A DNA stretch of 64,000 nucleotides from Candidatus Micrarchaeota archaeon (GCA_021848065.1 JAJZNA010000009.1:3271-67270); one strand, 5' to 3'. Positions 12,484 to 58,971 are shown, counted from the stretch's first letter. Numbers and translations are program-made. The notes: generated by a model not told the origin, from the letters alone.

Positions 12484-12488
12484 AGGGC

Positions 12489-13865: not shown

Positions 13866-13874
13866 CCGATGTTC

Positions 13875-14906: not shown

Positions 14907-15004
14907 CCTTTCGTTCTTCAGGTTGCCTTGTATCCTGTTTTCCGCTGCAGCCAAAAGATCTACCTGAAGATATGTGGCTGTCTAAATATATAATGATATA
15001 TGGG

Positions 15005-27217: not shown

Positions 27218-27434
27218 AGTCTAAACTTGATACGCCGGGACTGGGATTTCCATAGGCACTGCCATCTGCAACGGCCTAATTTGAACCCAGAAGGCCCGAA
27301 GGCCACCAGATCTCGAGTTTCGCCAATTGTTCTGGCGCGATACCGGATTCTGCCATCCCGGCGCAGCGTTAAATGGTGGAACGATAAAAGTAATAAATAC
27401 CTGCTGCGCTATATTTGCATCTAAATCTGATGAA

Positions 27435-29915: not shown

Positions 29916-29961
29916 GTTAACTACAAACTCAATATCACAATTGAATATTAAGTGTGGTGGA

Positions 29962-32900: not shown

Positions 32901-33009
32901 TGCAGAGGGCACGAACAGGATACTGGTCGCAGGATACTCTGCAAACCAGACCGTTCAGGCAGGCAACCAGTTCATACAGCAGTTGCTGCAGGCCGCAGGA
33001 GTAGCGTAA
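29962..33009 (+). CDS. Putative S-layer / major surface glycoprotein
   Basis: Signal peptide MKTINAKRIAAVAASLLMGLAFAG. 1,015 aa rich in T/S/N/G/V with dozens of NxS/T sequons and no TM anchor. Strong hairpin plus oligo-T terminator downstream. Start set at ATG 29962. Confidence 0.6.
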   Translation: MKTINAKRIAAVAASLLMGLAFAGTGVTWNNIPIINNQGQPVVQVVVGSAAQPSDGVVAANIAAVLGNLAFTSVNVTASVSQSSLSKVNCVVTTPQCTLTNQQVWFNAKGFSAPSGSYAFTALIGSVFNGAVNLGSPQNTKTLQSSTTYTYPGAFANNQPGLQMSPVASPYSGSVTPPAPQTVTASSNGGGLSSSGFGGTGFRLSGNDNLLQVTSSQLPSLLTNWGSYGESTTLWFTGIPVFDQSTSPAVNNFAVFDVGGAYQAMFNKPIQWRTGSNSINNAAINFMGANWTILNYKLPGASAWNHYTTQVLASPATASGNAMLGGAISLASTLTPVQTVYVGHNITSGGFTVSLTDLGQPNSNGTSQASVNVFYNGTLTNTTQLAPGVTTKFTVGTHNIYVKVNQTFAGLYAYQKWAKFQLYSNVMNVTDNTALNQSNANGWTARLWWTNTTNGAGSMPNALSGIVVYNTSPNNNPLLPGQTFKIATPNMTNYQLNFVGSTLGTNFDPVTFTTGTTTTSYQNLGSNPATTGLGNIANLTQQPSPTLTVSSGSVTGAFTYAGQVSSQLYYNLVPYKLNEVANGITANTMLATGAAHDSAVTTDNVLLSATNGDANVVTPSNPLTVTVVGYTTSTQAGGVSNTLASNSITFYALPGGSNSVGLGELLYNVTNIYFSRPVPLLDANVITYTAAVGTPAVNTLATLVPANPELMYYSQSGQSNYRLTSGSSVNYNQQNGQPIEYFNLTPATPGVTGTSKPYFTYKVTEYPVPAITSTNDILELGIYNSSTGISASPYFQLNTSVAGTKNNATYVSSQGNSVNAPQGFMTERGSKVASISPTSVTLDLAKAVDTLQFVVSPTMGYNASTSSTTTSVGPVGIGQAVPGVANLTVSAVNATCAFTATSCNVTGLGNLTATPSQTQAVTPVYLHTDTTPLVVLDSQANPAATLIVVGSKYVNSVAGQVFAQNPSLNSSFGPSSVVVSAEGTNRILVAGYSANQTVQAGNQFIQQLLQAAGVA

Positions 33010-43986: not shown

Positions 43987-44097
43987 CCTACAGATCTGAA
44001 ACATTTGACGACGGCATTGCTTTTTCATCAAAGTTTTTTGAGACGTCTGCCCCTAGTTAAGAACAAGATTTTCTGCGTACTAAAAGCTAAGAACCCA

Positions 44098-44135
44098 ACA
44101 AGATTTATATTGATTTATATGGAACATAATTTGGG
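44098..44135 (+). repeat. Copy 1 of the identical 38-nt upstream block (TATA-containing)
   Basis: acaagatttatattgatttatatggaacataatttggg ends 8 nt before ATG 44144 and is identical to 46299-46336. Confidence 0.85.
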
Positions 44136-44143
44136 TATGTGTA

Positions 44144-44647
44144 ATGTATAGTGTTAATAAGAAAGGTTTTGGTTGGAAATTAATCTTAGGATTTTTAGCA
44201 GTAGCAGTTTTACTATTAATATACTTATTTATTCAGGTATTTAATTATTTTGAACCACATACTGCTACCATACAACTAAACTGTATATCAAATACACCCC
44301 CATATCAATGTCCTGCCTTAGTCTATGATCACACTACTGGAAATATAACTGTACAGTTAGAACAGTCAACAGGAACAAATTGGACTTCCACAAGCATATT
44401 CTTCATACCGCAAGGAACTCCAACTATTGATGGTACTCCTGTTACTATTATGAGAAATGGCTCTGGTAGTGTAGTTGCAGGCGGACTTAATAATAACCAA
44501 TTTATTTCGATCACCTTAGCTGTTTCTTCTCCTGCAGTTACTGCAATAGGCACATCTGCAATTGGAGAAATATGGGCCAAATATACGACTTCAAATGGAG
44601 GTCCTTATTATTCTGAACTTGCAAAAGTAAATGTAAAGGCAACATAA
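44144..44647 (+). CDS. Small signal-anchored beta-rich protein, cassette partner A1
   Basis: N-terminal KKG + TM (WKLILGFLAVAVLLLIYLF). Paralogous to the 46339 gene (shared ...TGN(I/L)T..., IWAKYTTSNGGPYY). Confidence 0.65.
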   Translation: MYSVNKKGFGWKLILGFLAVAVLLLIYLFIQVFNYFEPHTATIQLNCISNTPPYQCPALVYDHTTGNITVQLEQSTGTNWTSTSIFFIPQGTPTIDGTPVTIMRNGSGSVVAGGLNNNQFISITLAVSSPAVTAIGTSAIGEIWAKYTTSNGGPYYSELAKVNVKAT

Positions 44648-44666
44648 CTATCTTGTTGGTTATCAA

Positions 44667-45674
44667 ATGAAATCTCTATTCATTTTTACCTTATATCTGT
44701 TCTTTATTTCATTGATAGCTTCTACCATGATATACGGCAATCATACCATCATAATTCAAAATGCTTCTTGGGCGGGATGGTCTATATACAACTCAAATCA
44801 GCCCAATTCGTACACTATAAATTCTATAAATGGTTCGTGGATTGTTGAAAAAGTGTTACCTAGTAACGAATTGGGTTGGGGGATGCAGTGGATTGGTATT
44901 GGCGGCTTGGGTAATTCAGACTTACTCCAGATAGGTACCGTATCCAATTGGGATTGCGAATTGGTGCTGTCTAAACCCATGTGCTATCCCAAATACCGTG
45001 CATTTTGGGAAACTACTAATAATGCCATTATAACTTCTGAACAACCTATTAGTATCTCAGTACACCCTGAAGATAAAATATACGCTTCAATAAATTCTAT
45101 TAGCAGTACTCACTGCCTCCTAGGGGCACCATGCTGGGAGTTATATCTTAAAGACTTAAATGGTAGCCAAATTTCTACATATTACGTAACTTACACGCCT
45201 AACCGAACTTCAGCAAATTGGGAGGAAGAAAGTATTGGTCCTTTAAGTGGCTCTACCTACCCATTCCCACTATCAAAATTCTGGGCTGCAGATTTTGGTC
45301 CTAAATATACGGATATGCCGAATACTAATTACGCAAATGTAAATATAACAACTAACAAGCCAGTTGGGTGGTATTCAAATTTAGTTGAAACCTACATTTC
45401 TAGAAACTTTGCAGGAACTGCCCATCCTTCTAATGTTACTATCAGTTCAGATAATTCTAGTTTCATAGTCTACGAAGGCCCGCAGCTTGAAATGGTTGGA
45501 GGCCTCAATGTTTCAAGGTCAATGCTGGATCTGGGCCAGGAGGCTGCCATTAATGGTCCTCACGCAGAAGGAGGTTCGGGCAATTACACATACCAATGGA
45601 TCGGGAGCTGCGTGGCGGGGGCATGGGGTTTTTATTATTTATCTATGTATAATATGTTATACTTTAATACTTGA
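44667..45674 (+). CDS. Peptidase G1 (eqolisin)-like secreted protein, apparently 3'-truncated paralogue of the giant gene
   Basis: Signal peptide, then G1-like blocks SWAGWS, INGSWIV, QWIGIGG, LLQIGT, ANWEEES, AADFGP. Collinear with the first ~320 aa of the 46891 protein; similarity ends just after GGSGNYTYQWI, inside the first Ig-like repeat. Confidence 0.6.
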   Translation: MKSLFIFTLYLFFISLIASTMIYGNHTIIIQNASWAGWSIYNSNQPNSYTINSINGSWIVEKVLPSNELGWGMQWIGIGGLGNSDLLQIGTVSNWDCELVLSKPMCYPKYRAFWETTNNAIITSEQPISISVHPEDKIYASINSISSTHCLLGAPCWELYLKDLNGSQISTYYVTYTPNRTSANWEEESIGPLSGSTYPFPLSKFWAADFGPKYTDMPNTNYANVNITTNKPVGWYSNLVETYISRNFAGTAHPSNVTISSDNSSFIVYEGPQLEMVGGLNVSRSMLDLGQEAAINGPHAEGGSGNYTYQWIGSCVAGAWGFYYLSMYNMLYFNT

Positions 45675-45690
45675 GATTTGGTAGATTGAA

Positions 45691-45993
45691 ATGGTCGGTA
45701 CACAAAAAGGGGGGCAGGTTACCCCCTCTAAGACCCACAATTTAGCTATTGGGATAGCAATTGGACTTTTAGTATATGTTATATCCTTGGCCAGTGCATC
45801 GCGTTTTATGTTTTGCACCCGTGTAATGCTGTGTTATTTTGGGACATTATTTTTTGCATTAATTTTACCAATAATATTAATATTTCTCTCTAGTGCAATT
45901 TTGTCAAGATATTATAGGTATGCCTTTTCCAAAATAGTCTTAGTTGCCCTTTTATTGTGGTTGGTGTTAAACGCATTATCTTTTCATACATAA
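45691..45993 (+). CDS. Small polytopic membrane protein (3 TM), unknown function
   Basis: 100-aa ORF with three hydrophobic helices. No homology recognised. Confidence 0.35.
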   Translation: MVGTQKGGQVTPSKTHNLAIGIAIGLLVYVISLASASRFMFCTRVMLCYFGTLFFALILPIILIFLSSAILSRYYRYAFSKIVLVALLLWLVLNALSFHT

Positions 45994-46078
45994 CTGATGC
46001 TTATATCAAAACTAACGGTAATTATATGCATAAAAACAAAAGAAAAACCGTGTTTTATTACTCTTAATAGCACAAATA

Positions 46079-46298
46079 TATGTCATACCAAATGTTTATG
46101 CACTAACTATCTCGGGTTCAATGAATAGTAGCACTTGGGCAGGCTATTTGGCATCTGCCTCTGGATATTTTCCCGGTGCTTCAACTCCGCCATCAGTTAC
46201 CGCTATAAATGGTTCGTGGATTGTTGAAAATGCAATAACCACTAACGAAACCACTACGGGGCGCAATGGATAGGTCTACAAAACCTTCTTCAAGGCCC
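46079..46298 (+). pseudogene. Remnant of a third G1-like gene N-terminus (frameshifted/deleted)
   Basis: Translates as ...MNSSTWAGYLASASGYF...VTAINGSWIVENAI...GRNG*, then continues in the +1 frame as GAQWIGLQNLLQG. It shares ataaatggttcgtggattgttgaaaa with 44825-44850 and runs straight into promoter-repeat copy 2. Confidence 0.6.
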
Positions 46299-46336
46299 AC
46301 AAGATTTATATTGATTTATATGGAACATAATTTGGG
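46299..46336 (+). repeat. Copy 2 of the identical 38-nt upstream block
   Basis: Identical to 44098-44135. Ends 2 nt before ATG 46339. Confidence 0.85.
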
Positions 46337-46338
46337 GT

Positions 46339-46839
46339 ATGGGTATGTCCAGTATTGATAAGAAAGGTTCTTGGTGGAAATGGGTAGTTGGTTTTATAGT
46401 AATAATTATACTGTCAGCAGTATTTTTATCAGGTATATGGCTCCCATTTCAAGGTACACCTCTAAGCACAAGATGCATCACACAACAAAACTATACTTGT
46501 TCTGAGGTCGTTTATAGCCACAGTACTGGTAATTTAACACTAATTATAGGGCAGTCAACTAGATATAACTGGACCTCTGTTAGTATATATTTTGTACCGT
46601 TTGGTACGGCTAATGTTGGTGGTATACCTAGCACAATACTTGATGGTATTGCTTCAGGTAATGTTATAATGCAAGGTCTAGCAAGCGGATCTACCTCCTC
46701 TATTACATTGAGGATATCCTCCCCTTCAGTTACACAAAAGGGCACAGTAGCAAATGGATCTATATGGGCCAAATACACCACTTCAAATGGTGGGCCATAT
46801 TATGCTCAAATGGCTCTGCTAAAAACAAGTGCAACATGA
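46339..46839 (+). CDS. Small signal-anchored beta-rich protein, cassette partner A2
   Basis: Paralogue of the 44144 gene: KKG + TM, Cys pair, TGNLT, SIWAKYTTSNGGPYY. Confidence 0.65.
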   Translation: MGMSSIDKKGSWWKWVVGFIVIIILSAVFLSGIWLPFQGTPLSTRCITQQNYTCSEVVYSHSTGNLTLIIGQSTRYNWTSVSIYFVPFGTANVGGIPSTILDGIASGNVIMQGLASGSTSSITLRISSPSVTQKGTVANGSIWAKYTTSNGGPYYAQMALLKTSAT

Positions 46840-46890
46840 TGTGATTCAATAGTTTACTATACCTCTTTACATAGCATTTATTCAAAGCCT

Positions 46891-49800
46891 TTGCTTATCT
46901 TTTCTTTTGCAATGTGTATAATCTCCATAGCATTCGCCACACAAAACATTCAACCCGAGTTTGGTCCTTGGGCCGGGTGGTCAATATCTGCCAGTGCTAA
47001 TGGCAACTCCAATCTTTATACTGTCAATGCAATAAACGGTTCATGGGTTGTGCAGAATACCATTCCAACAGGAATAACTGATGGTTTCGGATCTCAATGG
47101 ATTGGAATAGGTGGTGTGAGTTCAACACCCCTAATCCAAATAGGTACTGTGTCTGATTGGGTAGTTACCTGTACTAATATCACTTGCTCCGGACACACAT
47201 TATACGCACCATTTGCAGAAACAGTTGGTTTAGGTGGTGTGATACCATTTATCTACACTATGCTGATGTCTATAAGTCCTGGAGACAAGATGCAGTCATC
47301 GATAAATTTAGTAAATGGTTCTTACTGTTTAATGGGTTCCCCCTGCTGGAAGTTATATCTCAACGACACAAATAAAAGTAAAAACAGTAGGCCTTGGATA
47401 ACATACATAACATTTGCTCCTAACCGGACTTCTGCTGATTGGGAAGAAGAAAGTTTGCAACCGTTTACTATGTCTTTACCACTATCAAATTTCAAGGTAG
47501 CATACTTTGGACCCCATTTTACAAAAATACCTAATACAAATCAAGCCAACATAAACTACTCGACAAATGTATCTATTGGTGGATACAATTATCTATTAAG
47601 AAACATATTTTCTGAGGGAGGAGCTGGGTTTGCAAACGCGTCAAACCTCTATTCAGATAATTCCAGTTTCATAGTCTACGAAGGCCCACAGCTGCAACTA
47701 AACGGAAATATAAATGCATCGTCTACTCTGCTCAATTTCGGACAAAATTCTACCCTCATCGGGTTAAATGCAACAGGCGGTTCTGGAAACTACACCTATA
47801 CTTGGATTGAACAGAAGTACGTGAATGCAAATACTTCAGTTACAACAAACGTAAATTGCTATAAAGGACCTTCAGATAACCAAATGCATTATATATTCTC
47901 TCCAGGGTGCGGGGTTACCCCAGGTATCTATCTCTTCACGCTTGAAGTAACTGATAACCGCACTGAAGTAACCCAGAAATCTAATACCGTAAGCATAACT
48001 GTAAATCCCAATCCTTCAGTCAGCCTTCCAACAAACATATCTTTGTACATACCTATACGTATAACCAACTCCCAGAACTCTCCAACTTCTGCACCATTTG
48101 ACCAGGCCGTTACTGTTGATAGCGCGGAATTCTCACGCTATGAGAATGCTAACCTTAGCAATATACGGTTCTTCTATAAAAATGGCACTATTGTACCTTC
48201 GTGGCTGGAAGGGAGTTACAAGAGCAGTTTCAGCAACGCATCTACGCGCACGTTATACTGGCTTAAACTCCAGAATGGGATAGGCGCAGGCCAGACTATA
48301 TATGTGTACATGGGATTTGGGCCTACTGGATCAATGATGTTCAATTCGAATAACACTGGTGCTGACCCGTATGGGTTTTCCAGCTCATATCCAATCTACT
48401 CATACGATGACGGCTCAAAAATATTTCCATTCTACGATAATTTTGCTGGAAATACGCTCGACAGTAATTGGACTGCTATAAATGGTTCAGGGAAAGAAAC
48501 AAGGCAAGGCTATTATGTTGATAATGGGCTCTACCAAAATCAAAGCTCAGGCGCAGAAGTATCCATATATACTGGAAACATGTTCCATTATGGGCAAATT
48601 GTTGACTTTGGGGGTTCTATCCCTTCTAGATACGCTCTACCTTCTGGCCCACCATACTACTGTGGCGTGGGTGAAGGTACAAACAAGGAAGGCTTCTTCA
48701 ATGCAGCTAATGCATTTTCAGATAATGTCTTGACAAATGGCCAAGCAATACTTATGGGCTACGGTGTTCAAGAACAGTCTTCATTAGGCTGTAGCGGCGG
48801 CGGATACGATGGCAAATGGCTATACGATAGTGAACTAGCATCCAATAATCTCTTCGAAGCCCCTAGTGCGTCATCAATACTCTTCGGATCAAATAACGAA
48901 ACAGGTATATCCTCCAATGCAACTGCATATCTTGGCAGTTATAATCTGAATTATGCTTTCCAGACCGCAAATGTAGCTATAATTAATTCTGCCGAAGGTG
49001 AACTTCTAGGACTCCAGATGGTAAACCTGGCTAGCGGATACCTTCATTGGGTTCGTATAAGAAACTCGCCTCCAGATGGCATAATGCCAAATGTGACTAT
49101 AGCCTCAATACCTACTAATCTGTCATTTTCTAATCCGATAACCCTGCAAGGATACCCTGACACACTTACCGCGCATGTGCCTTTCAATGATCCTGTAACA
49201 CTCACTATAGGGGACCCTATAGCTAGCATAAATGGCACAGGCAGTGTCAATTACACCATATGCTCTACAAAATCTACATGCTTGCCTGCTGGTACCTATA
49301 CTGTAACCGTTAATGACACAAAACAGTCTGTTGTAGAAAATTGGACTCTTGTGATAGAGGCGCCCCCAAATGTAATTGCCACACCTTCCAAATCAACGCT
49401 TGATCAGGGCCAGCAGATATACCTAAGCGCAAACATATCTAATGGGACCGGACAATATGATTATCAATGGTATAACCTTACTTTAGGGAACAGCACTGCA
49501 ATTACGGGTCAAACTGGAAAGCTGTTTCTATTCAATGCTATGAAAACAGGCACATTCAAATATTATGTAATAGCAAATGACATTGGAACCAACGAAACTT
49601 ATTCAGCAAAATCCAATAACGTTACTGTTACTATATATCCTATGCTATCTGTAAATATAACTCCCGCATTCAGAGCCATGTCGCCTGGTGGAAATGATAA
49701 TATCCTCATGCATTCTATTGTTAATGGTGGCACTGGGAATTTCACATACCAGTGGTATAATTTCAGCTCCGGAATATTCCCCGTCCCTATGCCTGCTCTA

Positions 49801-52800
49801 ACTTCAAATGAAACTTCAGTGGTGTTCAATTCCCTTGGTGATTATTCTTACCTTCTAATAGTTACTGATGAAGGTACAACAACCTCACCCAAAGCATCTA
49901 CAATATCATATCCTAACAACATCTCAGTAACTTATCCTATCATAAAGTTATTTCCTAAAAATGACACAATATTCAATAATCAATCTATTACTTTTACAAA
50001 TCTAACACTTCCAAACGACACCGTCTATACCTTTTCGTATAACATATCGCAATACGGAAAATCCGCTTCAACTTCAAACTATCTGGTATCTGGAAATTCG
50101 ATACGATTCTTCAATATAAACTCGCAGCATCCTCAAATTTTTAATGTATCAGAAACTGCTATGGACAGTTCAGGACATATCGGGTTATCGTCTAACAGCA
50201 CGATAACCGTCAACCCCCCATATTTCTGGTCGCCTCCAAATAAAATAACAGCGTACATAAATCTCACAATATACAATGGCCAGAACTACTCCATAGCCGC
50301 CAATACACAAATACCCATATATCTAAATGTTGTAAAATACAATGCATATGCTGCTAATAATTTGGTTAACTTCGAAGTGTTCAACGGATTTGACGAAGAA
50401 ATAGTTCCATCCTGGATTGAGAACCAGACATCAAATAGTATAGCCTCAAATGGAAACGCTTTGATATGGGTAAAACTGCCATATGCAATAGCTGCAAAAT
50501 CAAGTTCTGTAAATGCAATATCTATGGGATTTGCAAATATGTCTACATCCCTTTTAAATCACAATAATGATGGCATAGCTCCAGAGCTATATTGTTTGGA
50601 AGGGGGAACAGTATGCCCTCAGACTAGCTACGGCGAATACGATGACGGTGCTTCTGTATTCAATTTTTATAGTAACTTTTCAGGTTCACAACTAAACGAC
50701 CAATGGACAAATCCATATGGGTCATCACTGACAGTGGATAATGGATTAACGCTAGCCCCTGCAACTAGCACTGGTTGTAGTAATAATGGCGGTGAACTTC
50801 AATCTGCCAATTCTTTCTATCTACCAGGCAATACTGTAGACTATTACGGTATACTACGTGGGGGAAGTGGCGCACCATGGTCTTCTGCAGGCATGGGTGT
50901 ATTTTCATCTCCAAATACTTGTGGAGGCACTAGTCAAGGCGATATTGACTGGGGTGCGAGCGAACGGTATTACAGAGCCAATCCAACAAGTTCCGACGCC
51001 AACATAAACTTCCTTTCAGAAATTACTGTATGGTCGATAGGTAGTAATCCTTCAGGATATGTATTATATTATTCACAAGGCTATCATAATACGCAATCAC
51101 AGCCAACTTCAAGTAATTTATCTAATGGGAATGTGGTAATTTATCAGCAAGTCAATTCTGGAGGATCTGCAAATGCAACTTGGGTCAGGATAAGAAAATC
51201 GCTTCCTAACGGCATCAAGCCTGAGGTATACTTCGGCCCATTGCTATATGCCCCATTAAATAACACAAAAGTACATGTCACCATAACTCTCTCACCGACA
51301 TCGGAACTCACTGATGCAGGACAGTCAGTGACATTCTATAATACAACTACCGGCGGCACTCCACCATACGTCTTCGCATACTCCGTGTCCCAATTCGGAA
51401 CACCTGCATCAACCGGCAACTATCTCATATCAGGAAACTCCATAAAGTTCACAAATGCCGGCACGTACAACGTAATAGAAAACGTCACTGACAGCATAGG
51501 CAACATTGCACACTCATCCAACAGCACGATAACCGTAAACCTAAAAACATCTAATTCTTCAGTGTGCGACATAGTTCCTGCAGATTTTAATATTACTGCA
51601 TGTATCCCTGTTTCAATAAGCAATACGCAAAATAGTAAAATGAATATGGGAACCCAGATTGCAATCCCATTCCCTGCGAATTCGTATGAAACATATGAAG
51701 CTGCAAACATGATGAATGTATTCCTATACAATGCCAGCAGCGGCAATACTGCCCCATGCTGGCTTGAAGGCAATACCCTAAACGAGATACAGTCGCAGAA
51801 CCTTTACGCATCCGCAAATCTGCTTTACTGGTGTAAGATGCCCGATTCAATACCTGCACAGTCAACAGATACCAACTGGTACTTTGGTTTTGCCAATTCC
51901 TCTACAGATCTTTATGGCAATCCGATTGCACAACTTGGTGCTGCCCCACAACTCCACTGTGGCAGCCCGTACAACTGCCCCACATCTTCATATGCAGGCG
52001 CAGACAACGGCAATGCTGTATTCAGCTTCTACGATAATTTCTCAGGAACAACATTGAGATCCAAATGGGCAGGTAGCACTAATCCATCATATTGTACTTA
52101 TACTGTATCAAATGGGCTTGAGGTAACGGATTCCCATTCAAATGGTGGCAATATCTTCTGTCAAACCTACAGTCTGCCTTCGTTCACTCTTCCAATAATT
52201 TCGGAAGGATTGCTTGAAGGCACCACCAGTTCAACGTATACTTCGATAGGTGCAAATATGACTGCCACCTCACAGGCTAATACTAATTCATACTTGATGT
52301 GGTTCAACCCTTATCATGGCTGTGAAATCATGTCATCTGATGGGGAAATACTAGGTGATGTGTCTGGAATATCTTCGACATGCAATGAGAACGTTTGGTC
52401 AATTTATTCATTATTTGCATCTCCAAATTCCATCACCGCAACGTTGAACTATGATCTATCTGCATCTCAGAATACGAGTTCAGTGCCTGTACCCTCCCCA
52501 ACAAATATAATCACTTCTGTGGGTGAGTATCCTGGCACGGCAGTCTCAAAATACCAGTGGGTAAGGGCAAGAGTTCCACCTCCAAATAATGTCCAGCCAA
52601 CAATAAGTTATTCTTCTTTGAAGGTTGCAAATTCGCATGTATCCTTGCTATTCAGCTCAAATCCTGCAAATGCCGAATCTTCAATCAATGTGACTGCAAC
52701 CTGTGTGCCTAACACCGATACATGCGCAGTGCAATCTCCACTTGGAACAACCTTATGTTCGGGTACTGGTTCATGTGTATACCAGACATCAGCGCTGCCA

Positions 52801-54159
52801 GCAGGAAACTACACTTATTTTGCAAATGATCTCACCTTAAACCACAATGTAAAGGAAATTTTGCAGATGGTGGCATACTGCGGAAACACTCCTTCCGGAT
52901 TTAGCGTAGATACCTGCGTACCAATTAAAATAGATAACACCCAGACTAGCTCCATACTCCCGAACACCCAGATTGCAATTCCATTCCCTGCGAATTCGTA
53001 TGAAACATACGAAGCCGCAAACATGATGAATATATTCCTATACAACGCCAGCAGCGGCAAGACTGCTCCCTGCTGGCTTGAAGGAAATACCCTCAACGAG
53101 ATGCAGTCACAGAACCTTTACACGTCTGCAAACCTATTGTACTGGTGCAGGATTCCTGACTCAATACCTGCACAGTCAACAGATACCAACTGGTACTTTG
53201 GCCTTGCACCTTCCTCAACAGATCTTTATGGCAACTCCATTGCGCAACTCGGTGCCGCCCCACAGCTCTACTGTGGCAGCCCGTACAACTGTCCTGCATC
53301 ATCATACGCTGGCGCAGACAATGGCAATGCAGTATTCAACTTCTATGATAACTTCTCAGGGACCGTTCTAGGCTCCAAATGGTATGCCCGTGCAGGCACT
53401 GCGACTGTAAACAACAGCGTGACATTCACCATGGGCAGCCAGGACAGCTGGCTGTCATCCACAATTCCTATAAATGGCCTGACAAATGATACGGACTTCC
53501 TAGGATCAATTGCAGGAACTACCTCAGGATATGATGCGCAATGGGTCTGCTATAGCGAAGGAAGTGCATCTACCGACGGCTGCACAAGTTACGGATTTAA
53601 GATAGGAGGCAGCAGCGGCGCAGGAAGCGATCTTCTTTCATGTAGCGGCAGCCTATGTGAAACATACGGCACCATCTCGTCAGTGGCCACTCCTACTGCA
53701 ATATCCCTATTCTCAATATGGTCTGCAGGAGGGATGGCGTATGTCTCTGATAATTATGGCATCATAAGTTCCGTTAACAACTCGCAGTATCTCACATCCA
53801 ATATTGATTTTGGAGGATCTTCGACATTCACCTCGGGCATGAAGTACTTCCTATATTATGTAAGATCGAGGACGCAGCCGCCTAACAACGTGCAGCCGTC
53901 AATAAGTTATGGCACTTCAGGAAGCCTCAATGGGACCAAGGCTGCGGTTGCGGGAAGCACTGCACCATACCTAGGCAACGCGTATACTGTTTCAGGCCAA
54001 TCAACGCAGCTAACCGCGACCAATTCTTTGTCCGGAGGTGGCATGATAACAAGTTCCACTTCAACGGGTGGCTTTACTTCGATTAGCACGGTCACTACTG
54101 TGGCTCCTTCTAACAATGTGGGGACGGTGCAGAAATCGCACCATAAATCTTCAAAATAA
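46891..54159 (+). CDS. Giant secreted multidomain protein: peptidase G1-like domain + 4 x (DUF2341-like + LamG/ConA-like) modules + Ig/PKD-like repeats
   Basis: Uninterrupted 2,422-codon ORF (TTG 46891 or ATG 46912) with a hydrophobic N-terminus. G1 blocks PWAGWS, INGSWVV, QWIGIGG, LIQIGT, ADWEEES. DUF2341-like starts lie near 48040, 50245, 51590 and 52905. Each module ends in [WY]VR[IAS]R..PP[DN][GN]..P. Ig-like repeats carry G-G-[ST]-G-x-[YF]-x-Y-x-W. The C-terminal tail is S/T/G-rich and there is no TM anchor. Confidence 0.7.
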   Translation: MLIFSFAMCIISIAFATQNIQPEFGPWAGWSISASANGNSNLYTVNAINGSWVVQNTIPTGITDGFGSQWIGIGGVSSTPLIQIGTVSDWVVTCTNITCSGHTLYAPFAETVGLGGVIPFIYTMLMSISPGDKMQSSINLVNGSYCLMGSPCWKLYLNDTNKSKNSRPWITYITFAPNRTSADWEEESLQPFTMSLPLSNFKVAYFGPHFTKIPNTNQANINYSTNVSIGGYNYLLRNIFSEGGAGFANASNLYSDNSSFIVYEGPQLQLNGNINASSTLLNFGQNSTLIGLNATGGSGNYTYTWIEQKYVNANTSVTTNVNCYKGPSDNQMHYIFSPGCGVTPGIYLFTLEVTDNRTEVTQKSNTVSITVNPNPSVSLPTNISLYIPIRITNSQNSPTSAPFDQAVTVDSAEFSRYENANLSNIRFFYKNGTIVPSWLEGSYKSSFSNASTRTLYWLKLQNGIGAGQTIYVYMGFGPTGSMMFNSNNTGADPYGFSSSYPIYSYDDGSKIFPFYDNFAGNTLDSNWTAINGSGKETRQGYYVDNGLYQNQSSGAEVSIYTGNMFHYGQIVDFGGSIPSRYALPSGPPYYCGVGEGTNKEGFFNAANAFSDNVLTNGQAILMGYGVQEQSSLGCSGGGYDGKWLYDSELASNNLFEAPSASSILFGSNNETGISSNATAYLGSYNLNYAFQTANVAIINSAEGELLGLQMVNLASGYLHWVRIRNSPPDGIMPNVTIASIPTNLSFSNPITLQGYPDTLTAHVPFNDPVTLTIGDPIASINGTGSVNYTICSTKSTCLPAGTYTVTVNDTKQSVVENWTLVIEAPPNVIATPSKSTLDQGQQIYLSANISNGTGQYDYQWYNLTLGNSTAITGQTGKLFLFNAMKTGTFKYYVIANDIGTNETYSAKSNNVTVTIYPMLSVNITPAFRAMSPGGNDNILMHSIVNGGTGNFTYQWYNFSSGIFPVPMPALTSNETSVVFNSLGDYSYLLIVTDEGTTTSPKASTISYPNNISVTYPIIKLFPKNDTIFNNQSITFTNLTLPNDTVYTFSYNISQYGKSASTSNYLVSGNSIRFFNINSQHPQIFNVSETAMDSSGHIGLSSNSTITVNPPYFWSPPNKITAYINLTIYNGQNYSIAANTQIPIYLNVVKYNAYAANNLVNFEVFNGFDEEIVPSWIENQTSNSIASNGNALIWVKLPYAIAAKSSSVNAISMGFANMSTSLLNHNNDGIAPELYCLEGGTVCPQTSYGEYDDGASVFNFYSNFSGSQLNDQWTNPYGSSLTVDNGLTLAPATSTGCSNNGGELQSANSFYLPGNTVDYYGILRGGSGAPWSSAGMGVFSSPNTCGGTSQGDIDWGASERYYRANPTSSDANINFLSEITVWSIGSNPSGYVLYYSQGYHNTQSQPTSSNLSNGNVVIYQQVNSGGSANATWVRIRKSLPNGIKPEVYFGPLLYAPLNNTKVHVTITLSPTSELTDAGQSVTFYNTTTGGTPPYVFAYSVSQFGTPASTGNYLISGNSIKFTNAGTYNVIENVTDSIGNIAHSSNSTITVNLKTSNSSVCDIVPADFNITACIPVSISNTQNSKMNMGTQIAIPFPANSYETYEAANMMNVFLYNASSGNTAPCWLEGNTLNEIQSQNLYASANLLYWCKMPDSIPAQSTDTNWYFGFANSSTDLYGNPIAQLGAAPQLHCGSPYNCPTSSYAGADNGNAVFSFYDNFSGTTLRSKWAGSTNPSYCTYTVSNGLEVTDSHSNGGNIFCQTYSLPSFTLPIISEGLLEGTTSSTYTSIGANMTATSQANTNSYLMWFNPYHGCEIMSSDGEILGDVSGISSTCNENVWSIYSLFASPNSITATLNYDLSASQNTSSVPVPSPTNIITSVGEYPGTAVSKYQWVRARVPPPNNVQPTISYSSLKVANSHVSLLFSSNPANAESSINVTATCVPNTDTCAVQSPLGTTLCSGTGSCVYQTSALPAGNYTYFANDLTLNHNVKEILQMVAYCGNTPSGFSVDTCVPIKIDNTQTSSILPNTQIAIPFPANSYETYEAANMMNIFLYNASSGKTAPCWLEGNTLNEMQSQNLYTSANLLYWCRIPDSIPAQSTDTNWYFGLAPSSTDLYGNSIAQLGAAPQLYCGSPYNCPASSYAGADNGNAVFNFYDNFSGTVLGSKWYARAGTATVNNSVTFTMGSQDSWLSSTIPINGLTNDTDFLGSIAGTTSGYDAQWVCYSEGSASTDGCTSYGFKIGGSSGAGSDLLSCSGSLCETYGTISSVATPTAISLFSIWSAGGMAYVSDNYGIISSVNNSQYLTSNIDFGGSSTFTSGMKYFLYYVRSRTQPPNNVQPSISYGTSGSLNGTKAAVAGSTAPYLGNAYTVSGQSTQLTATNSLSGGGMITSSTSTGGFTSISTVTTVAPSNNVGTVQKSHHKSSK
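51652..52068 (+). repeat. Intragenic repeat copy A (DUF2341-like module core)
   Basis: Roughly 90% or more identical by eye to 52966-53382. The offset is exactly 1,314 nt (438 codons, in frame). Confidence 0.8.
52966..53382 (+). repeat. Intragenic repeat copy B
   Basis: See copy A. For example, cagattgcaat[c/t]ccattccctgcgaattcgtatgaaacata[t/c]gaagc[t/c]gcaaacatgatgaat. Confidence 0.8.
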
Positions 54160-54170
54160 CCGGTGTAAGA

Positions 54171-54461
54171 ATGGCCAATATCTCCAAAATAACTGAGGAA
54201 CTTGGAAGGTCTCCAACCTTGGAAAACTGGGAAAGGTTCCGCAAGGCCCTTGCATCTTCCGGAATAAAATATTATTCAATAAAGTTTCCAGAGCCTAGTC
54301 TCAAGGGACTAGAAGACCTGCGCAGCGCGTATGCAGAGCTCTACGATTCAAGGGGAAGACCCATTTTCCGAGTGCCTATAATAATGTCATCAGGGAAAGG
54401 CGTACGCGGTGCGACTTCCTACCTTAAGGGCCTGCTGAACCTGAACAGGTGGCCATCATGA
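54171..54461 (+). CDS. Hypothetical small protein
   Basis: 96-aa ORF whose 3' end overlaps the cysD start by 13 nt. No motif recognised. Confidence 0.4.
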   Translation: MANISKITEELGRSPTLENWERFRKALASSGIKYYSIKFPEPSLKGLEDLRSAYAELYDSRGRPIFRVPIIMSSGKGVRGATSYLKGLLNLNRWPS

Positions 54462-55246
54462 TCAAGCAAGACCTCGCAGAGCTTGAAGAAAAGAGCATAT
54501 TCATACTGCGCGAGGCGCATTCACGTTTCAAGAATGTGGCAGCGCTCTGGTCCATGGGCAAGGACTCTACTGTGATGCTCTCAATTGCAAGGAAGGCCTT
54601 CATGGGAAAAGTCCCATTTCCCGTCATACACATAGACAATGGCATAGACTTCCCTGAGACGTACCAGTTCAGGGACGAGTTGGCTCGGAAATGGGGCCTG
54701 GACCTTATAGTTGCCCAGAGCGCCATAAAGCCTGAGATATCCGGGTTCGGATGCTGCGGTGCGAACAAGACAGAGGCGCTTAAGAGGGTTCTAGCCTCCA
54801 ACGGCTTCGACGCGCTCATAGTGTCCATAAGAAGGGATGAGAATGGCGTACGTGCAAAGGAAAGGGTAATCTCGCCAAGGGACAAGAACTTCAAGTGGAA
54901 GTATCGGGACCAGCCTGCAGAGGTCTGGGACAGCTATTCATTCAGGCAGGAATCCGGAGGCCATGCACGCGTACACCCTCTGCTGGACTTCAACGAGCTT
55001 GATATATGGGATTACATCCGTAAGGAGCGTATTCCCGTAAATCCACTATACTATTCAAGGAATGGGAAGAGATACCGCAGCCTCGGATGCACCCATTGCA
55101 CAAGCCCTATAAGCTCCGAAGCCAAGAGTGTAAAGGGCATAATATCTGAACTCGAGTCAAGCAGGCTTGAGGAGCGCTCCGGAAGGGATCAGGACAAGGA
55201 GCGCGAATACGTGATGCAGCGGCTAAGATCACTCGGATACATGTAA
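54449..55246 (+). CDS. cysD: Sulfate adenylyltransferase subunit 2 (CysD, PAPS-reductase fold)
   Basis: PP-loop-like LWSMGKDSTVML, then FPVIHIDNGIDFPETYQFRDE, then C-terminal ERSGRDQDKE. Confidence 0.8.
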   Translation: MAIMIKQDLAELEEKSIFILREAHSRFKNVAALWSMGKDSTVMLSIARKAFMGKVPFPVIHIDNGIDFPETYQFRDELARKWGLDLIVAQSAIKPEISGFGCCGANKTEALKRVLASNGFDALIVSIRRDENGVRAKERVISPRDKNFKWKYRDQPAEVWDSYSFRQESGGHARVHPLLDFNELDIWDYIRKERIPVNPLYYSRNGKRYRSLGCTHCTSPISSEAKSVKGIISELESSRLEERSGRDQDKEREYVMQRLRSLGYM

Positions 55247-55247
55247 A

Positions 55248-56450
55248 CTACCCACGGCTAAAGCCTGTGGGCTTTCCATCAAGATGATTTGAATGTTGCA
55301 CAGCAACCAACAAACCACTTTCATCGGACATCTGTCTAAGGTCGTTTACAAGACCTTCCCTATTGGAAATCTGGAAGGGTTTATGGTTAGTAGAATCCTT
55401 CCGCTCCAAAAGGCATTTCAATGCAATATTCTTGCTTGCATTTCTGTCGGAGTTCACGACAACTCCGCATTCCTTGCATTCAAAGAGGGCATAATTATTG
55501 CTACTGTGTCCCTTACCAACAGCACCGCAGTGGTTACAGAACTTGGAGGTATGCCACGAATCAACGATATTCAGCGTAATCTTCTTATCAAAACAACGAG
55601 AAGTAAGAATCTCCCGAAACTTCCTGAATGGCATCCTCATGACTTCCTTGTTGAATCTTCTGCCCTTCAGTTTGAATCTCTTGAGGTTCTCAATGGAAAT
55701 ATCTGCATTATATTCTCCTGCAAGGTCAAGAATCCCCTTAACCATCTGCCCTATATTAGTATCAACGAAGTCATATTCACGAGTCTTCAATCTTCGGAGG
55801 GCAGAGAGATTATTGAAACCCTGCATTACGGAGCGTCTTCGCATAATTCCCTTCCTCTTCATCCAGATATGCAATCCAAAGTAATCCTGATGCAGAACCT
55901 TGCCTTTATCGGAAAGGACGGAAACGGCGATGCGCTTCGCATTGAAATCAATCCCCATAACATTTCTTTTGGCAGGCAATTCAACCTCATCTTTGGAAAG
56001 ATATGCGACAATCTGGAGGTTAGGGGTCAGCCCATAGGTCTTGCACGTCCATCCACTCTTCAGAAGGTCGGAGTATCTCTGGAAGTTGCGGTTCTTGATA
56101 AAGGGTATTGCAATCCTGTTTCTCGGATATATTCCGAGTTCAATGAAGTCGAAAGATTTAGTGGAGAAGGCTTTACAGTTTCGAGGAATGTTGAACTTGA
56201 CGGTTATGCCTTTGGACTGGTTCTTGCTTCTCCAGACTGCACGTTCCAGAGAAGCATAAACTTGAACATTGAATCCTGTTCTTATTTTGGATTCGGCAAA
56301 CGTCTTCCTATGAAAATCCATGAAGGTATTGCAAAAATCCCTGTCTTCCCAGAGTTTATTGAACTCGGAAGTGGCTTTCAAAGAGAACTCTTCCAAGAAC
56401 CTTCTCTTTCTGGTAGTTGCATCAATCTGCAAAAGAACAGCACGTTTCAT
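55248..56450 (-). CDS. tnpB: TnpB (IS605 OrfB-type RNA-guided endonuclease)
   Basis: RuvC-I GIDFN, RuvC-II ISIENL, zinc finger CNHCG...CKECG, RuvC-III NSDRNASKNIA. The ATG at 56450 (MKRAVLLQ) is preferred; the ORF extends to TTG 56504. The C-terminal GKPTGFSRG is read through the end hairpin. Confidence 0.85.
   Translation of the reverse strand: MKRAVLLQIDATTRKRRFLEEFSLKATSEFNKLWEDRDFCNTFMDFHRKTFAESKIRTGFNVQVYASLERAVWRSKNQSKGITVKFNIPRNCKAFSTKSFDFIELGIYPRNRIAIPFIKNRNFQRYSDLLKSGWTCKTYGLTPNLQIVAYLSKDEVELPAKRNVMGIDFNAKRIAVSVLSDKGKVLHQDYFGLHIWMKRKGIMRRRSVMQGFNNLSALRRLKTREYDFVDTNIGQMVKGILDLAGEYNADISIENLKRFKLKGRRFNKEVMRMPFRKFREILTSRCFDKKITLNIVDSWHTSKFCNHCGAVGKGHSSNNYALFECKECGVVVNSDRNASKNIALKCLLERKDSTNHKPFQISNREGLVNDLRQMSDESGLLVAVQHSNHLDGKPTGFSRG
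55251..55271 (+). repeat. tnpB-element end hairpin (3' side of tnpB; candidate RE / omega-RNA scaffold end)
   Basis: CCCACGGC-TAAA-GCC(T)GTGGG. Confidence 0.6.
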
Positions 56451-56509
56451 CCTACTAACCAAATAAATATGGATAACGATGTATATGATGCTTATGCTCG
56501 ACAATTCCC

Positions 56510-56530
56510 CCCGCCCGTGAACGGTGTGGG
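56510..56530 (+). repeat. tnpB-element end hairpin (5' side of tnpB; candidate LE)
   Basis: CCCGCCCG-TGAA-CGG(T)GTGGG. Confidence 0.6.
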
Positions 56531-56557
56531 CTTCCTTGTCGAGATTAGGTGATTATT

Positions 56558-57760
56558 ATGAAGATCAACCGTGTTGCAGTGCTTGGAAACAAGGACCACG
56601 GCAAGTCAACGCTCATAGGAAACCTGATGATCTCCACAGGATCTACTTCTCAACAGCGCATAACTGATGCAAAAGAGGCCAGTGCCAGGTTTGGCCAGAG
56701 ATTCGAGCCTGCATTTATCCTCGATAGTTTCATGGAGGAGCGCAAAGGCGGATTCACCCTGGATTCAACGCGCGTGCAGATGGTGCATGGCGGCCGTGCG
56801 TTCGAATTCATAGACCTTCCAGGCCACGAGGAGCTTATGAAGAACATGCTTAGCGGGGCTTCCAATGCCGAAAGTGCCCTAGTCCTAATATCCGCAGACC
56901 CTAAGGAAGGGATAAGCGAGCAGACAATGCGCCACGTGTTCCTGGCTTCCATGCTTGGGATGGGAAGCCTCACATTCGCAGTTAACAAAATGGATGCCGC
57001 TGGATACAGCCAGCAGGCCTTCGAAGAGATAAAAGCAAGAATGTCATCATTCATTTCAGGAATAGGCTTCTCAGGCAGATCTGCCTTTGTGCCCATATCT
57101 GCATATGCTTCTGAGAATCTAATCGGGCTTTCCAGAAACATGCCGTGGTACTCCGGGCAGAGCCTTATGCAGACGCTTGCCTATGGCTCAAGATCACAAG
57201 TACGGAACCGGAAAGATCCTCTTAGGCTTTCCATACAGGGCACGCTTGATGGCGATCTTATCATCGGCAAGATGCTTTCGGGCAGCCTGAGGCAGGGGCA
57301 GTCGGTTGTTTCCATGCCCCAGAGCGTAAAAGGAAAAGTGTCCAAGCTTTATGTGGGGAATAAGCCTGCAAAGAGTGCAATTGCCGGGCAAAACGTTGCC
57401 ATTCGTACAGATATGAAAGCCAATCCACCCATACCCGGATCCGTTGTTTATGGGGCCAAATCCGCACCTAGCTTTGGGGACAGTTTCAGTGCCATGGTGT
57501 TCGCCACTTCAAGACTGGGAAACGATGTTGAAATGCGAGTAAACGGAACTTCAGTTCCATGCCGCATGCAGGTAGGGCACTATCTGTATCCTCTCAATGT
57601 ACGGCCCCGTTCTGGTGGCGTAAAGCCACTATGCGCTGCCAGAGTAACCATAACGCCATCCAGGCCAATTGTGGCAGAGCCATTCAGGAAATCCAGGGAG
57701 CTTGGAAGATTCTCCATATACTACCACGACAGATTCGCTGGCATAGGCATAATGCTTTAA
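56558..57760 (+). CDS. cysN: Sulfate adenylyltransferase subunit 1-like GTPase (CysN / EF-1alpha family)
   Basis: G1 GNKDHGKSTLIGNLM, G3 DLPGHEELMKNM, G4 NKMD, beta-barrel domains II/III. Genomic partner of cysD. Start at ATG 56558, after the SD-like aggtga. Confidence 0.7.
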   Translation: MKINRVAVLGNKDHGKSTLIGNLMISTGSTSQQRITDAKEASARFGQRFEPAFILDSFMEERKGGFTLDSTRVQMVHGGRAFEFIDLPGHEELMKNMLSGASNAESALVLISADPKEGISEQTMRHVFLASMLGMGSLTFAVNKMDAAGYSQQAFEEIKARMSSFISGIGFSGRSAFVPISAYASENLIGLSRNMPWYSGQSLMQTLAYGSRSQVRNRKDPLRLSIQGTLDGDLIIGKMLSGSLRQGQSVVSMPQSVKGKVSKLYVGNKPAKSAIAGQNVAIRTDMKANPPIPGSVVYGAKSAPSFGDSFSAMVFATSRLGNDVEMRVNGTSVPCRMQVGHYLYPLNVRPRSGGVKPLCAARVTITPSRPIVAEPFRKSRELGRFSIYYHDRFAGIGIML

Positions 57761-57792
57761 ACTTGCTCACCTCAATATATCATGTTGTTTCT

Positions 57793-58971
57793 ATGAAGAT
57801 AGTGGTGCTAGGCGCTGACGGATATCTGGGATGGCCCCTCTCACTGAGGCTGATGGCAAGAGGCCATGACGTGGTGGGTGTTGACAACTTCGCCACAAGG
57901 AAGGCCGTGAAGGAAGTAGGTTCTGATTCAGCCATCCCCATACTTAGCATGCCTGACCGCATAAAGGCCGCGAAAGAGATCCACGGCTTCAAGATGAAGT
58001 TCCACGAAGGGGACGTTACAAAATACGAGCTTCTTCACAAGGTCCTAAAGGAAGAAAAGCCTGACGCAGTGGTCCATTTCGCAGAGCAGCGCTCAGCGCC
58101 ATACTCAATGATTGACGTAAAGCATGCAGCCTATACTCTATCAAACAACATAGTAGGTTCTGTCAACCTGATTTATGCCATAATGGCGGTAGATCCAAAT
58201 ATTGCAAGCGTGAAGATGGGCACGATGGGTGAGTTCGGGACGCCCAACTTCGACATACCCGAATCTGCGTTCGTGGATGTGGAGATAAACGGAAGGAAGG
58301 ACCGCATAACAACCCCAAAGTTTGCCGGTTCATGGTATCATTGGACAAAGGTGCACGACACCAACAACCTTCTCTTCGCCAACAAGGTGTGGGGAATAAC
58401 TGCGACAGACATAATGCAGGGGCCCGTATACGGCACCAGGACAAAGGAGATAACGGACGAGAGGCTTCACACAAGATTCGACTTCGACCAGGCGTGGGGC
58501 ACGGTGGTGAACCGTTTCTGCGTGGAGAGCGTACTTGGCATGCCTCTAACGGCGTATGGGAAGGGGGGCCAGATAAGGGGATACCTATCCCTAGAGGACA
58601 GCGTAACGGCACTGTCCTTGCTGATCGAGAATCCCCCTAAGAAAGGTGAGTACCGCGTTGCAAACCAGTTCGTGGAGCTTTTGAGCGTCAACAATATCGC
58701 ATCACTTGTGCAGAAGACTGCAAAAGGGCTTGGCATAAATGTTGAAATATCTCACGTTGACAATCCAAGGGTAGAGGCGGATACGCACTACTACAATCCT
58801 GAAATCAAAGTCCTTCCATCACTGGGATTCCACCCGAGCCTGAAGATGGCAGATATACTCGGCCAGGTGATAGGTGACCTTATGCGCTACAAATCCAGGA
58901 TGGAAAAGTTCAAGGGCAGCATAATGCCGCAGACTAGGTGGAGGGATCATCCAAGCGCTGACACCAGTTGA
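57793..58971 (+). CDS. sqdB: UDP-sulfoquinovose synthase (SQD1/SqdB/Agl3 family SDR)
   Basis: MKIVVLGADGYLGWPLSLRL Rossmann start. Blocks VVHFAEQRSAPYSM, GEFGTPN, GSWYHWTKVHD, QGPVYGT, RFDFDQAWGTVVNRF are collinear with SQD1-type enzymes. Start at ATG 57793, not 57559. Confidence 0.8.
   Translation: MKIVVLGADGYLGWPLSLRLMARGHDVVGVDNFATRKAVKEVGSDSAIPILSMPDRIKAAKEIHGFKMKFHEGDVTKYELLHKVLKEEKPDAVVHFAEQRSAPYSMIDVKHAAYTLSNNIVGSVNLIYAIMAVDPNIASVKMGTMGEFGTPNFDIPESAFVDVEINGRKDRITTPKFAGSWYHWTKVHDTNNLLFANKVWGITATDIMQGPVYGTRTKEITDERLHTRFDFDQAWGTVVNRFCVESVLGMPLTAYGKGGQIRGYLSLEDSVTALSLLIENPPKKGEYRVANQFVELLSVNNIASLVQKTAKGLGINVEISHVDNPRVEADTHYYNPEIKVLPSLGFHPSLKMADILGQVIGDLMRYKSRMEKFKGSIMPQTRWRDHPSADTS

Follow-up and report, generated by a model that had tools for sequence, protein, structure and literature searches.

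Two anciently duplicated surface-protein cassettes in a Micrarchaeota genomic island, and a strain in which one small-gene-plus-head module has been replaced

The 64,000-nucleotide (nt) stretch of DNA analysed here (the window; Candidatus Micrarchaeota archaeon, GCA_021848065.1 JAJZNA010000009.1:3271-67270) carries two copies of a two-gene cassette, in each of which a gene for a small, predicted membrane-anchored protein precedes a gene for a predicted secreted protein that begins with a head domain of the same type, which we call G1-like. We found that in a co-occurring strain the head of the first cassette, together with the end of the small gene before it, has been replaced by a deeply diverged version, that the downstream edge of the replacement falls in a nucleotide-conserved linker, and that a sister genome lacks the entire region. 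Our preferred account, which we regard as probable and hold with some reserve, is that the locus is a strain-variable surface-protein island in which modules of small gene plus G1-like head are exchanged by homologous recombination at nucleotide-conserved boundary blocks, with gene remnants arising as by-products.

The host is probably an uncultivated acidophilic archaeon of the Micrarchaeota. The window encodes Hjc, a ThrRS with an archaeal editing domain and an S-layer protein, and the cassette proteins are closest to sequences from metagenome-assembled genomes (MAGs) of Micrarchaeota, Parvarchaeota and Thermoplasmatota from acidic sites. The features on which the argument turns are listed below, in window coordinates; other loci and proteins are cited by our L and P numbers.

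44098-44135, + strand: putative promoter/leader block, copy 1; an exact 38-nt repeat with two TTTATAT TATA-like boxes (44104 and 44114), ending in AATTTGGG, 8 nt from an ATG
44144-44647, + strand: small1, 167 amino acids (aa); predicted N-terminal membrane helix and extracellular beta-sandwich; uncharacterised family
44667-45674, + strand: short paralogue (N1), 335 aa; signal peptide, peptidase-G1-like domain, start of a PKD-like repeat, uncharged aromatic C-terminal tail
45446-45487, + strand: linker block, SDNSSFIVYEGPQL, at the boundary between G1 domain and PKD repeat; 40/42 identical to 47652-47693; strain-level recombination junction
45528-46066, + strand: constant segment, 100% identical between the two alleles of the short gene; covers the short-gene 3′ end, ORF100 and the start of the remnant
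45691-45993, + strand: ORF100, hypothetical, 100 aa with about three hydrophobic segments; a gene call in two assemblies, with no family match, and identical in contig L003 (see below)
46026-46298, + strand: pseudogene remnant in which a further G1-like gene is reduced to its first ~90 codons; two frameshifts, truncation after LLQ(I)G, joined to block copy 2
46299-46336, + strand: putative promoter/leader block, copy 2; exact repeat of 44098-44135
46345-46839, + strand: small2, 164 aa from the homologous ATG at 46345; the open reading frame (ORF) opens two codons earlier, at 46339
46891-54159, + strand: giant gene, 2422 aa from TTG 46891 or 2415 aa from ATG 46912
47652-47693, + strand: copy of the linker block in the giant gene, 40/42 identical to 45446-45487
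43987-58485, no strand assigned: variable genomic island, 14.5 kb, absent from the sister genome

Results

Replacement of a module in the first cassette

The replaced module was found on a 1,452-nt contig from run SRR13236739 (L003). Aligned with window positions 45445-46066, this contig has nine mismatches, all of them in 45452-45527; identity is 100% over 45528-46066 and 89% over 45445-45527, and upstream of 45445 the two sequences cannot be aligned. The upstream part of L003 encodes the end of a different small protein and a different G1 head. The product of its short gene (allele B; P0002, 337 aa) is intact, with a head 49% identical to that of the window's allele A and with the C-terminal 70 residues identical. 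Since cassette 2 of the same run (46307-47522) is 100% identical to the window, SRR13236739 contains the same population with a replaced small-plus-head module. We also considered allele B as a second locus in the same genome and rejected this: k141 contigs in two other samples cross the 539-nt shared segment unbroken, so the alleles lie in different genomes and are not paralogues of one.

The junction coincides with the linker block, which is conserved at its synonymous sites: the same codon is used at 11/14 identical residues between the two copies (P=0.004 against background). A 23-nt core, AGTTTCATAGTCTACGAAGG[C/T]CC, is identical but for one C/T position in four cassette lineages of this habitat, and more distant cassettes encode the same linker peptide with other codons.

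Contig ends cluster at the same place. Allele-A Logan contigs end at 45557 in two runs, which is the last A/B difference (45527) plus k-1, and in a third run the contig ends at 45527, or 45497 + 30. The ENA assembly ERZ27237063 has one k141 contig ending at 45589 and the next starting at 45449, exactly one 141-nt node. Across contigs L004, L079 and L080-L082, from four samples, ends at 45527, 45557 and 45449/45589 are those expected if alleles join at three points. These positions hint at several independent recombination junctions within ~80 nt and indicate that alternative heads would coexist with allele A in several samples.

The head domain and the proteins that carry it

The N-terminal domain common to the short and giant proteins is, to judge from profile and fold comparisons, of the peptidase-family-G1 (eqolisin) fold, with the predicted Gln/Glu dyad intact. 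A profile of six homologues run against PDB sequences matched the aspergillopepsin II heavy chain (1Y43_B, E 4.6e-8), aligning LLQIGT with ILQTG (Gln) and NWEEES/DWEEES/DWIQES (W-E-E-E-S; Glu) with the EWIVED motif. The Gln (Q88 of LLQIGT) is invariant in nine sequences; we take the catalytic residues to correspond to Q53/E136 of scytalidoglutamic peptidase (SGP). PF01828 (Peptidase_A4) is recorded on three database homologues (P0003-P0005), and N1 alone gave no Pfam match at E<=0.01. An AlphaFold2 (AF2) model of the short protein, used as weak support only because its mean predicted local distance difference test score (pLDDT) is 52, or low confidence, has the scytalidoglutamic peptidase structures 2IFW, 2IFR and 1S2B as its top three PDB folds (E 4e-5 to 2e-4; template modelling score, TM, ~0.6 on target). 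The label G1-like goes back to an annotation of the window made by a model from the DNA alone (the sequence-only reading), where it probably stood for 'giant gene 1'; its match to the name of the peptidase family is a coincidence.

The short gene starts 20 nt past the small1 stop with no promoter-like sequence between them, and is therefore probably co-transcribed with small1. Its protein is 45% identical to the giant N-terminus over ~310 aa, and the similarity stops right after GGSGNYTYQWI, as the sequence-only reading had it. That reading went on to describe the gene as a truncated, decaying copy, which is not supported. The ORF is intact, bears its own copy of the block, and encodes a signal peptide, all family motifs and the Gln/Glu dyad; an exact copy of the 335-aa protein occurs on 7 contigs; both alleles keep an open frame, the G1 motifs and the same C-terminus; and a distant genome has an analogue (L021, below). 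Comparison of the short-gene tail and the first part of ORF100 with the PKD repeat gave a weak signal (protein alignment z ~2.4; DNA no better than shuffles); the two may be a degenerate PKD remnant, which would fit an ancient, fixed truncation.

The giant protein consists of the G1-like head, PKD-like repeats, three to four DUF2341/LamG-like modules and a Ser/Thr-rich end. It has 76 N-glycosylation sequons, repeated GGxGNxTYxW and WVRxR motifs and no C-terminal membrane segment. Its gene contains a direct repeat of 395 nt at 88% identity (51652-52046 / 52966-53360), making two of the DUF2341-type modules much more alike than the rest, and Logan contigs of the gene stop at 50235-51324, upstream of this repeat. 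We rejected the giant protein as an S-layer protein: DUF2341 is its only Pfam match, it has no NCBIfam match, and PF05123/PF05124 and TIGR01564/01567 are absent. The actual S-layer protein is likely to be a separate 1,022-aa product with S_layer_C (PF05124), whose gene (29941-33009) lies 11 kb upstream of the cassettes and adjoins a family-2 glycosyltransferase gene (27327-28997). The Micrarchaeota S-layer protein SLP_Mh is of the S-layer-domain type, the same kind as the 29941-33009 product (bioRxiv 10.1101/2021.04.28.441871).

The small proteins

Small1 and small2 are 45-47% identical in amino-acid sequence and match nothing in Pfam or NCBIfam. Their family has 303 relatives at E<=1e-3 among 1.84 billion representatives; a word-indexed protein search with small1 returned small1 alone. 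The AF2 model of small1 (pLDDT 69, modest confidence) has a helix at 9-35 followed by nine strands, and its best PDB match is the Haloferax volcanii type IV pilin 8FJ5_A, at E 4e-3 and a TM of only 0.32-0.38. The prepilin motif expected of an archaeal type IV pilin with a class III signal peptide, [K/R]-[G/A] cleavage followed by an uninterrupted hydrophobic stretch, is not conserved: small1 and small2 read KKG and then FGWK or SWWK, relatives P0059, P0062, P0066 and P0067 have basic N-termini without a conserved G/A site, and no pilin model in Pfam or NCBIfam matches. With so weak a pilin resemblance and no conserved prepilin motif, we treat the small proteins as putative signal-anchored extracellular proteins.

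The 38-nt block upstream of both cassettes

Each small gene is preceded by the same 38-mer, ACAAGATTTATATTGATTTATATGGAACATAATTTGGG, identical at 44098-44135 and 46299-46336, and a third copy is absent from the window at up to and including 10 mismatches (<=10). This confirms the arrangement given in the sequence-only reading, of an identical block before a small paralogous gene and then a G1-like gene, with the homologous start of the second small gene at 46345 instead of 46339. Homology between the copies begins sharply at the 5′ edge of the block and continues downstream into the genes at only ~60-77% nucleotide identity. In both cases the small-gene ATG lies 46 nt after the start of the block (44144 and 46345), and the second TTTATAT box starts 30 nt before it; spacing is similar for TATA-like boxes of other genes in the window (guaA, ~-27; an ABC gene, ~-30). 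The block would thus fit an archaeal promoter with a leaderless or very short-leader mRNA. A scan for sigma-70 promoters and terminators gave the same counts as shuffled sequence, the model not being applicable to an archaeon, and an Rfam scan of the window found one tRNA only.

Comparable blocks occur elsewhere. In the JGI metagenome Ga0335074, five cassettes have a near-invariant upstream block of ~70 nt, CAAGAT...TATATTATATA-CTTTCCTTTC...TAATTAGCAGGTAAGTTGGG, followed by 8-10 nt and a start codon, and their coding sequences are much more diverged. CAAGAT, TATA and AATTTGGG are common to the window's block and those of Ga0335074 (pattern CAAGAT...TATA...AAGTTGGG). The near-invariant block (TATATTATATACTTTCCTTTC..TAATTAGCAGGTAAGTTGGG) lies within L083 3368-4565, L085 86-225, L086 3434-3573 and L088 388-527. 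Identity at 38/38 positions between paralogues that are otherwise saturated (see below) calls for constraint or homogenisation, and since the paralogues are old we read the block as a constrained cassette promoter/leader that carries no sign of recent duplication. It is, on these comparisons, a putative cassette-specific regulatory element, nearly identical among paralogues within a lineage.

Age and distribution of the cassettes

The sequence-only reading saw a decaying series of copies, a view that is not supported. Third codon positions are 40-46% identical between the paralogues, which is near saturation, and identical residues use the same codon in 40-51% of cases. Small2 is 55-58% identical to the intact small gene of another organism (L083) and only 45% to small1; the giant head is 48% identical to the L083 head, about as close as to N1 (45%). 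Saturated third positions and the closeness of small2 to L083 together mean that the duplication is ancient, and we estimate from these divergences that it long predates the species.

A small-family gene stands directly before a G1-like gene twice in the window, twice in L083, and in L085, L086, L088, L070 and L136. Two small genes in L021 are divergently oriented to the G1-like partner, contrary to the arrangement in the window. In all, the pairing of a small gene with a G1-like gene was seen at 8 independent loci besides the window. In L167 and L170 a large gene directly follows a small-gene relative or an upstream gene that is partial, and ~140 other G1-like loci are without a small gene. 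L021, from a distant Micrarchaeota MAG, holds two tandem units at 9320-15198: a small gene, a 317-aa G1-like protein ending ...GGTGVYTYIWLEKRFV, a second small gene and a giant paralogue. Its short form thus stops at the same motif as the window's short gene and likewise adjoins a giant paralogue. The two L021 copies are 38% identical to each other and 25-32% to the window's; as they are mutually closest, the short form has been either maintained or generated repeatedly.

Close relatives were absent from scans of GTDB genomes and JGI metagenomes, where identity reached at most 34% and 43%. A word-indexed search with giant residues 1-700 found no close allele either (best 34%), with sensitivity limited in that the giant protein itself is unlisted there. 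The comparison of strains therefore concerns exact-protein look-ups, on which it rests.

A remnant fused to the second block

Between ORF100 and block copy 2 lies a frameshifted remnant of a further G1-like gene, which the sequence-only reading had recognised and placed at 46079-46298; it begins earlier, at ATG 46026. One frameshift is in the A-run 46029-46046, and the other is a 1-nt deletion near 46257. The translation runs through a signal-peptide-like stretch and WAGY...INGSWIVEN and, after the deletion, ends in QWIGLQNLLQG, within ~3 nt of the block. The G1 family hidden Markov model matches 46034-46270 (E 3e-10). A TATA-like CTTATATC lies ~22 nt upstream of the ATG (region 46001-46028) and may allow transcription of the pseudogene even now.

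Most of the remnant shows ~50% identity to each of the heads; the exception is a patch at its centre. There it matches the short gene of the window exactly over 28 nt (46203-46230 = 44824-44851; the exact match had been noticed before and put at 26 nt), that is, 28/28 to allele A, and is 87.5% identical to allele B over 72 nt, a stretch that includes a variable loop (ITTN-TT-GAQWIG) common to no other head. This patchiness suggests short conversion tracts among the copies. The junction with block copy 2 is illegitimate, as no homology spans it, and a deletion or the edge of a tandem duplication would produce it. The locus does recombine: the remnant is fused illegitimately to the block, nucleotide-identical patches link the copies, and the short gene is mosaic in a co-occurring strain. 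To that extent the earlier claim of recombination at this locus is borne out.

Partial copies are found at other loci too. L083 3448-4217 contains a full small gene and an 83-codon G1 fragment ending QWIGIGG, with an intact small-plus-giant cassette immediately following; in the window's remnant the break comes just a few codons later, after the LLQ(I)G motif. In L070 a truncated G1-like copy of 190 aa adjoins ftsY. L169 3-2707 (ERZ27233573, from the same ENA study series) has a 5′-truncated G1-like gene (227 aa) followed by another small-family gene. A partial transposase-like ORF of 480 aa, which by eye we take to be IS66-like, abuts the truncated gene, and the linker core of L169 is nucleotide-identical to that of the window; L169 may represent one more cassette locus, either from this genome or from a close relative's.

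The genomic island

In a sister genome (L071; GCA_964561405.1, CAZLPL010000025.1), guaA is 93% identical in nucleotides to that of the window and the genes downstream of the island are 91-95% identical. At the island site itself it has 1.8 kb of unrelated genes, including PDDEXK and TnsA-like endonuclease genes. The cassette part of the island has a GC content of 0.37-0.46, compared with ~0.52 in the 4 kb upstream. The island also holds cysD/cysN-like genes split by TnpB, and it includes part of a gene for a nucleotide-sugar epimerase, which at its 3′ end matches the sister genome; the nucleotidyltransferase gene just downstream of the island is conserved in the sister.

The TnpB-like gene (55248-56504, - strand), which encodes a Cas12f1-like TNB domain, lies between the cysD-like gene (54449-55246; PAPS-reductase domain) and the cysN-like gene (56549-57760; EF-Tu-type GTPase), and looks like an insertion splitting a sulfate-activation gene pair. 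The GTPase ORF (56549-57760) and the epimerase ORF (57559-58971) overlap by 200 nt. The Pfam match of the latter begins at residue ~80, and the epimerase probably starts further downstream than its first start codon.

Alternative explanations

Several points weigh against exchange of modules at boundary blocks. Allele B was seen directly on one contig only, of 1,452 nt. Look-ups with guaA and with the small gene, aimed at the allele-B small gene and its 5′ junction, gave only allele-A contigs, which break at the 38-mer. Coexistence of alleles and the additional junctions were read from contig ends, not from reads. The block is assigned as a promoter from its TATA-like boxes and their spacing, and strong promoter constraint alone would explain why it is identical, without a role in recombination. 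Confidence in the structure models is modest for small1 (pLDDT 69) and low for the short protein (pLDDT 52).

The explanation that best survives beside module exchange is a birth-and-death history without ongoing exchange, with the block as a constrained promoter and the linker kept by constraint on codons or structure. Allele B would then be a balanced polymorphism of long standing, or an import by ordinary recombination between strains in which the blocks have no special part. We give it a smaller but serious share of our belief. The paralogues are ancient, the conservation of upstream blocks among many cassettes elsewhere points to regulatory constraint, truncated copies and an adjacent transposase-like ORF look like ordinary decay, and the island is gained or lost as a whole. 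It has more difficulty with a swap junction that falls exactly in the nucleotide-conserved linker, and with the synonymous sites of that linker, which are homogenised within the lineage although distant relatives encode the same peptide with other codons. Contig ends that hint at up to three junctions within 80 nt, and a remnant having lineage-specific patches in common with both alleles, also weigh against it.

The sequence-only reading had proposed antigenic variation of the pilS/vls type, in which the 335-aa gene and the remnant are silent donors that convert the N-terminal domain of the giant protein. We think this improbable. Partial copies do adjoin the giant gene, and short patches of nucleotide identity connect the copies: 28 nt between remnant and short gene, 42 nt at the linker, and the 72 nt over which remnant and allele B agree at 87.5%. 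There is also mosaicism at the locus, and the layout of a remnant before an intact cassette recurs in L083. However, across the eight assemblies compared, among them the allele-B run, giant head and small2 show 100% identity; variation, and with it the mosaic allele, was seen in the short gene only. A donor for allele B was not found. With its own block, intact frame, signal peptide and catalytic residues, and with both alleles intact, the short gene is not silent. A tblastn search of the window found N1, the giant gene and a single fragment of ~90 codons, so that there is no cassette array and just one tiny promoter-proximal fragment that could count as silent. No candidate recombination-initiating element turned up, although no specific search was made. 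An intact gene at 44667, with an analogous short form in a distant genome, comes close to the outcome that the reading had itself named as counting against the idea.

An assembly or binning artefact, with the repeats or the mosaic contig arising as mis-joins between related populations, is a concern that the same reading raised for the repeats and that we consider very improbable, even with all sequences coming from metagenome assemblies and allele B lying on a single short contig from Logan. In two samples, MEGAHIT k141 contigs cover both block copies and the whole locus at 100% identity, and three independent MEGAHIT assemblies and the NCBI MAG contig (GCA_021852005.1, identical) agree at 100%. 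In six runs, the Logan contigs (k=31) have their starts at 44106 and 46307 and their ends at 44127, k-1 bases into the 38-mer, as a two-copy repeat predicts. Further, the mosaic contig encodes an intact 337-aa protein with all family motifs, and allele-A contigs end at the k-mer position predicted by the last difference of allele B.

Discussion

Exchange of small-plus-head modules can be pictured as follows. The island would hold two anciently duplicated two-gene operons with the same cassette-specific promoter/leader, so that both are probably expressed and co-regulated. Each would encode a small membrane-anchored beta-sandwich protein and a secreted protein with a G1/eqolisin head; the product of operon 1 is predicted to be short, a head with a constant hydrophobic tail, and that of operon 2 a 2,422-residue glycosylated adhesin-like protein. 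Small gene and head would be inherited together as a single module, the small protein perhaps docking, anchoring or controlling its partner. Whole modules would be swapped between strains by recombination at the blocks, with the linker SDNSSFIVYEGPQ as the 3′ exchange boundary and the promoter block, a candidate recombination anchor, probably as the 5′ boundary. Short conversion tracts and illegitimate deletions would leave remnants behind. Virus pressure or host recognition might drive such exchange.

In a bolder version, the promoter/leader and the SDNSSFIVYEGPQ linker would serve specifically as recombination anchors, within a cassette-exchange system that shuffles co-adapted modules among paralogous operons, partial copies and strains. 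We regard it as unlikely. If true, it would mean that a DPANN-type archaeon varies the tips of its surface proteins against viruses or for host choice, an archaeal equivalent of antigenic variation in bacteria that works by a different mechanism.

DPANN archaea, Micrarchaeota among them, live attached to archaeal hosts; for host recognition and virus attachment, the strongest suspicion falls on their giant, strain-specific surface proteins. To our knowledge, almost nothing is known of how these proteins vary. The locus offers a concrete case, with an exchangeable module, defined boundary sequences and two naturally occurring alleles whose surroundings are otherwise identical. A family of ~300 unannotated small proteins that pairs with G1-like surface proteins is defined as well, and the tip of a giant surface protein of an archaeon appears to carry a peptidase fold of the acid-active kind.

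Among known systems, Neisseria pilE/pilS and Borrelia vlsE vary their antigens from silent cassettes. Partial copies beside an expressed gene, short conserved blocks flanking variable sequence, tract-like sharing and a mosaic allele are features in common with our locus. Here, however, there is one tiny fragment and no array, the 'truncated' copy is intact and has its own putative promoter, and the large expressed gene is invariant. A whole two-gene module of ~1.3 kb is replaced between strains, in place of segmental mosaics within a clone, and the host is an archaeon.

Further parallels are the S-layer homologues of the Campylobacter fetus sap locus, with their conserved 5′ region, and the swaps of flagellin and O-antigen loci, in which alleles are replaced via conserved flanks. 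As in those cases, deeply diverged alleles occupy an identical background, breakpoints fall in conserved edge sequence and the island is strain-variable. What is exchanged here differs: the unit combines a small membrane protein with the peptidase-like head encoded next to it, a domain linker within coding sequence forms one of its boundaries, and a paralogous operon at the same locus retains the same boundary blocks.

The eqolisins (scytalidoglutamic and aspergilloglutamic peptidase) resemble the head in profile and, by a low-confidence model, in fold, with the Gln (LLQIGT) and the Glu (W-x-x-E-S/D) kept, and their acid optimum fits the acidic habitat of the host. Unlike them, the domain described here heads, at the N-terminus, either a giant protein of many domains or a short protein with a tail, and is paired with a dedicated small membrane protein; its activity is a prediction. 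Members of peptidase family G1 have been noted in bacteria and archaea (PMC3009609, PMC6154417).

'Ca. Mancarchaeum acidiphilum' Mia14 has strain-specific giant secreted proteins of the PKD and LamG/DUF2341 type in genomic islands, for which contact with the host cell is proposed (PMC5498576). Size, secretion, domain type, island location and strain specificity are all shared with the giant protein; the G1-like head, the paired small gene, the shared promoter block and the head swap do not figure in the parts of that description considered here. Allelic replacement of cassettes at surface-antigen loci is a known phenomenon, and the present locus is an instance of it in a little-studied archaeal lineage, with a previously undescribed gene pair.

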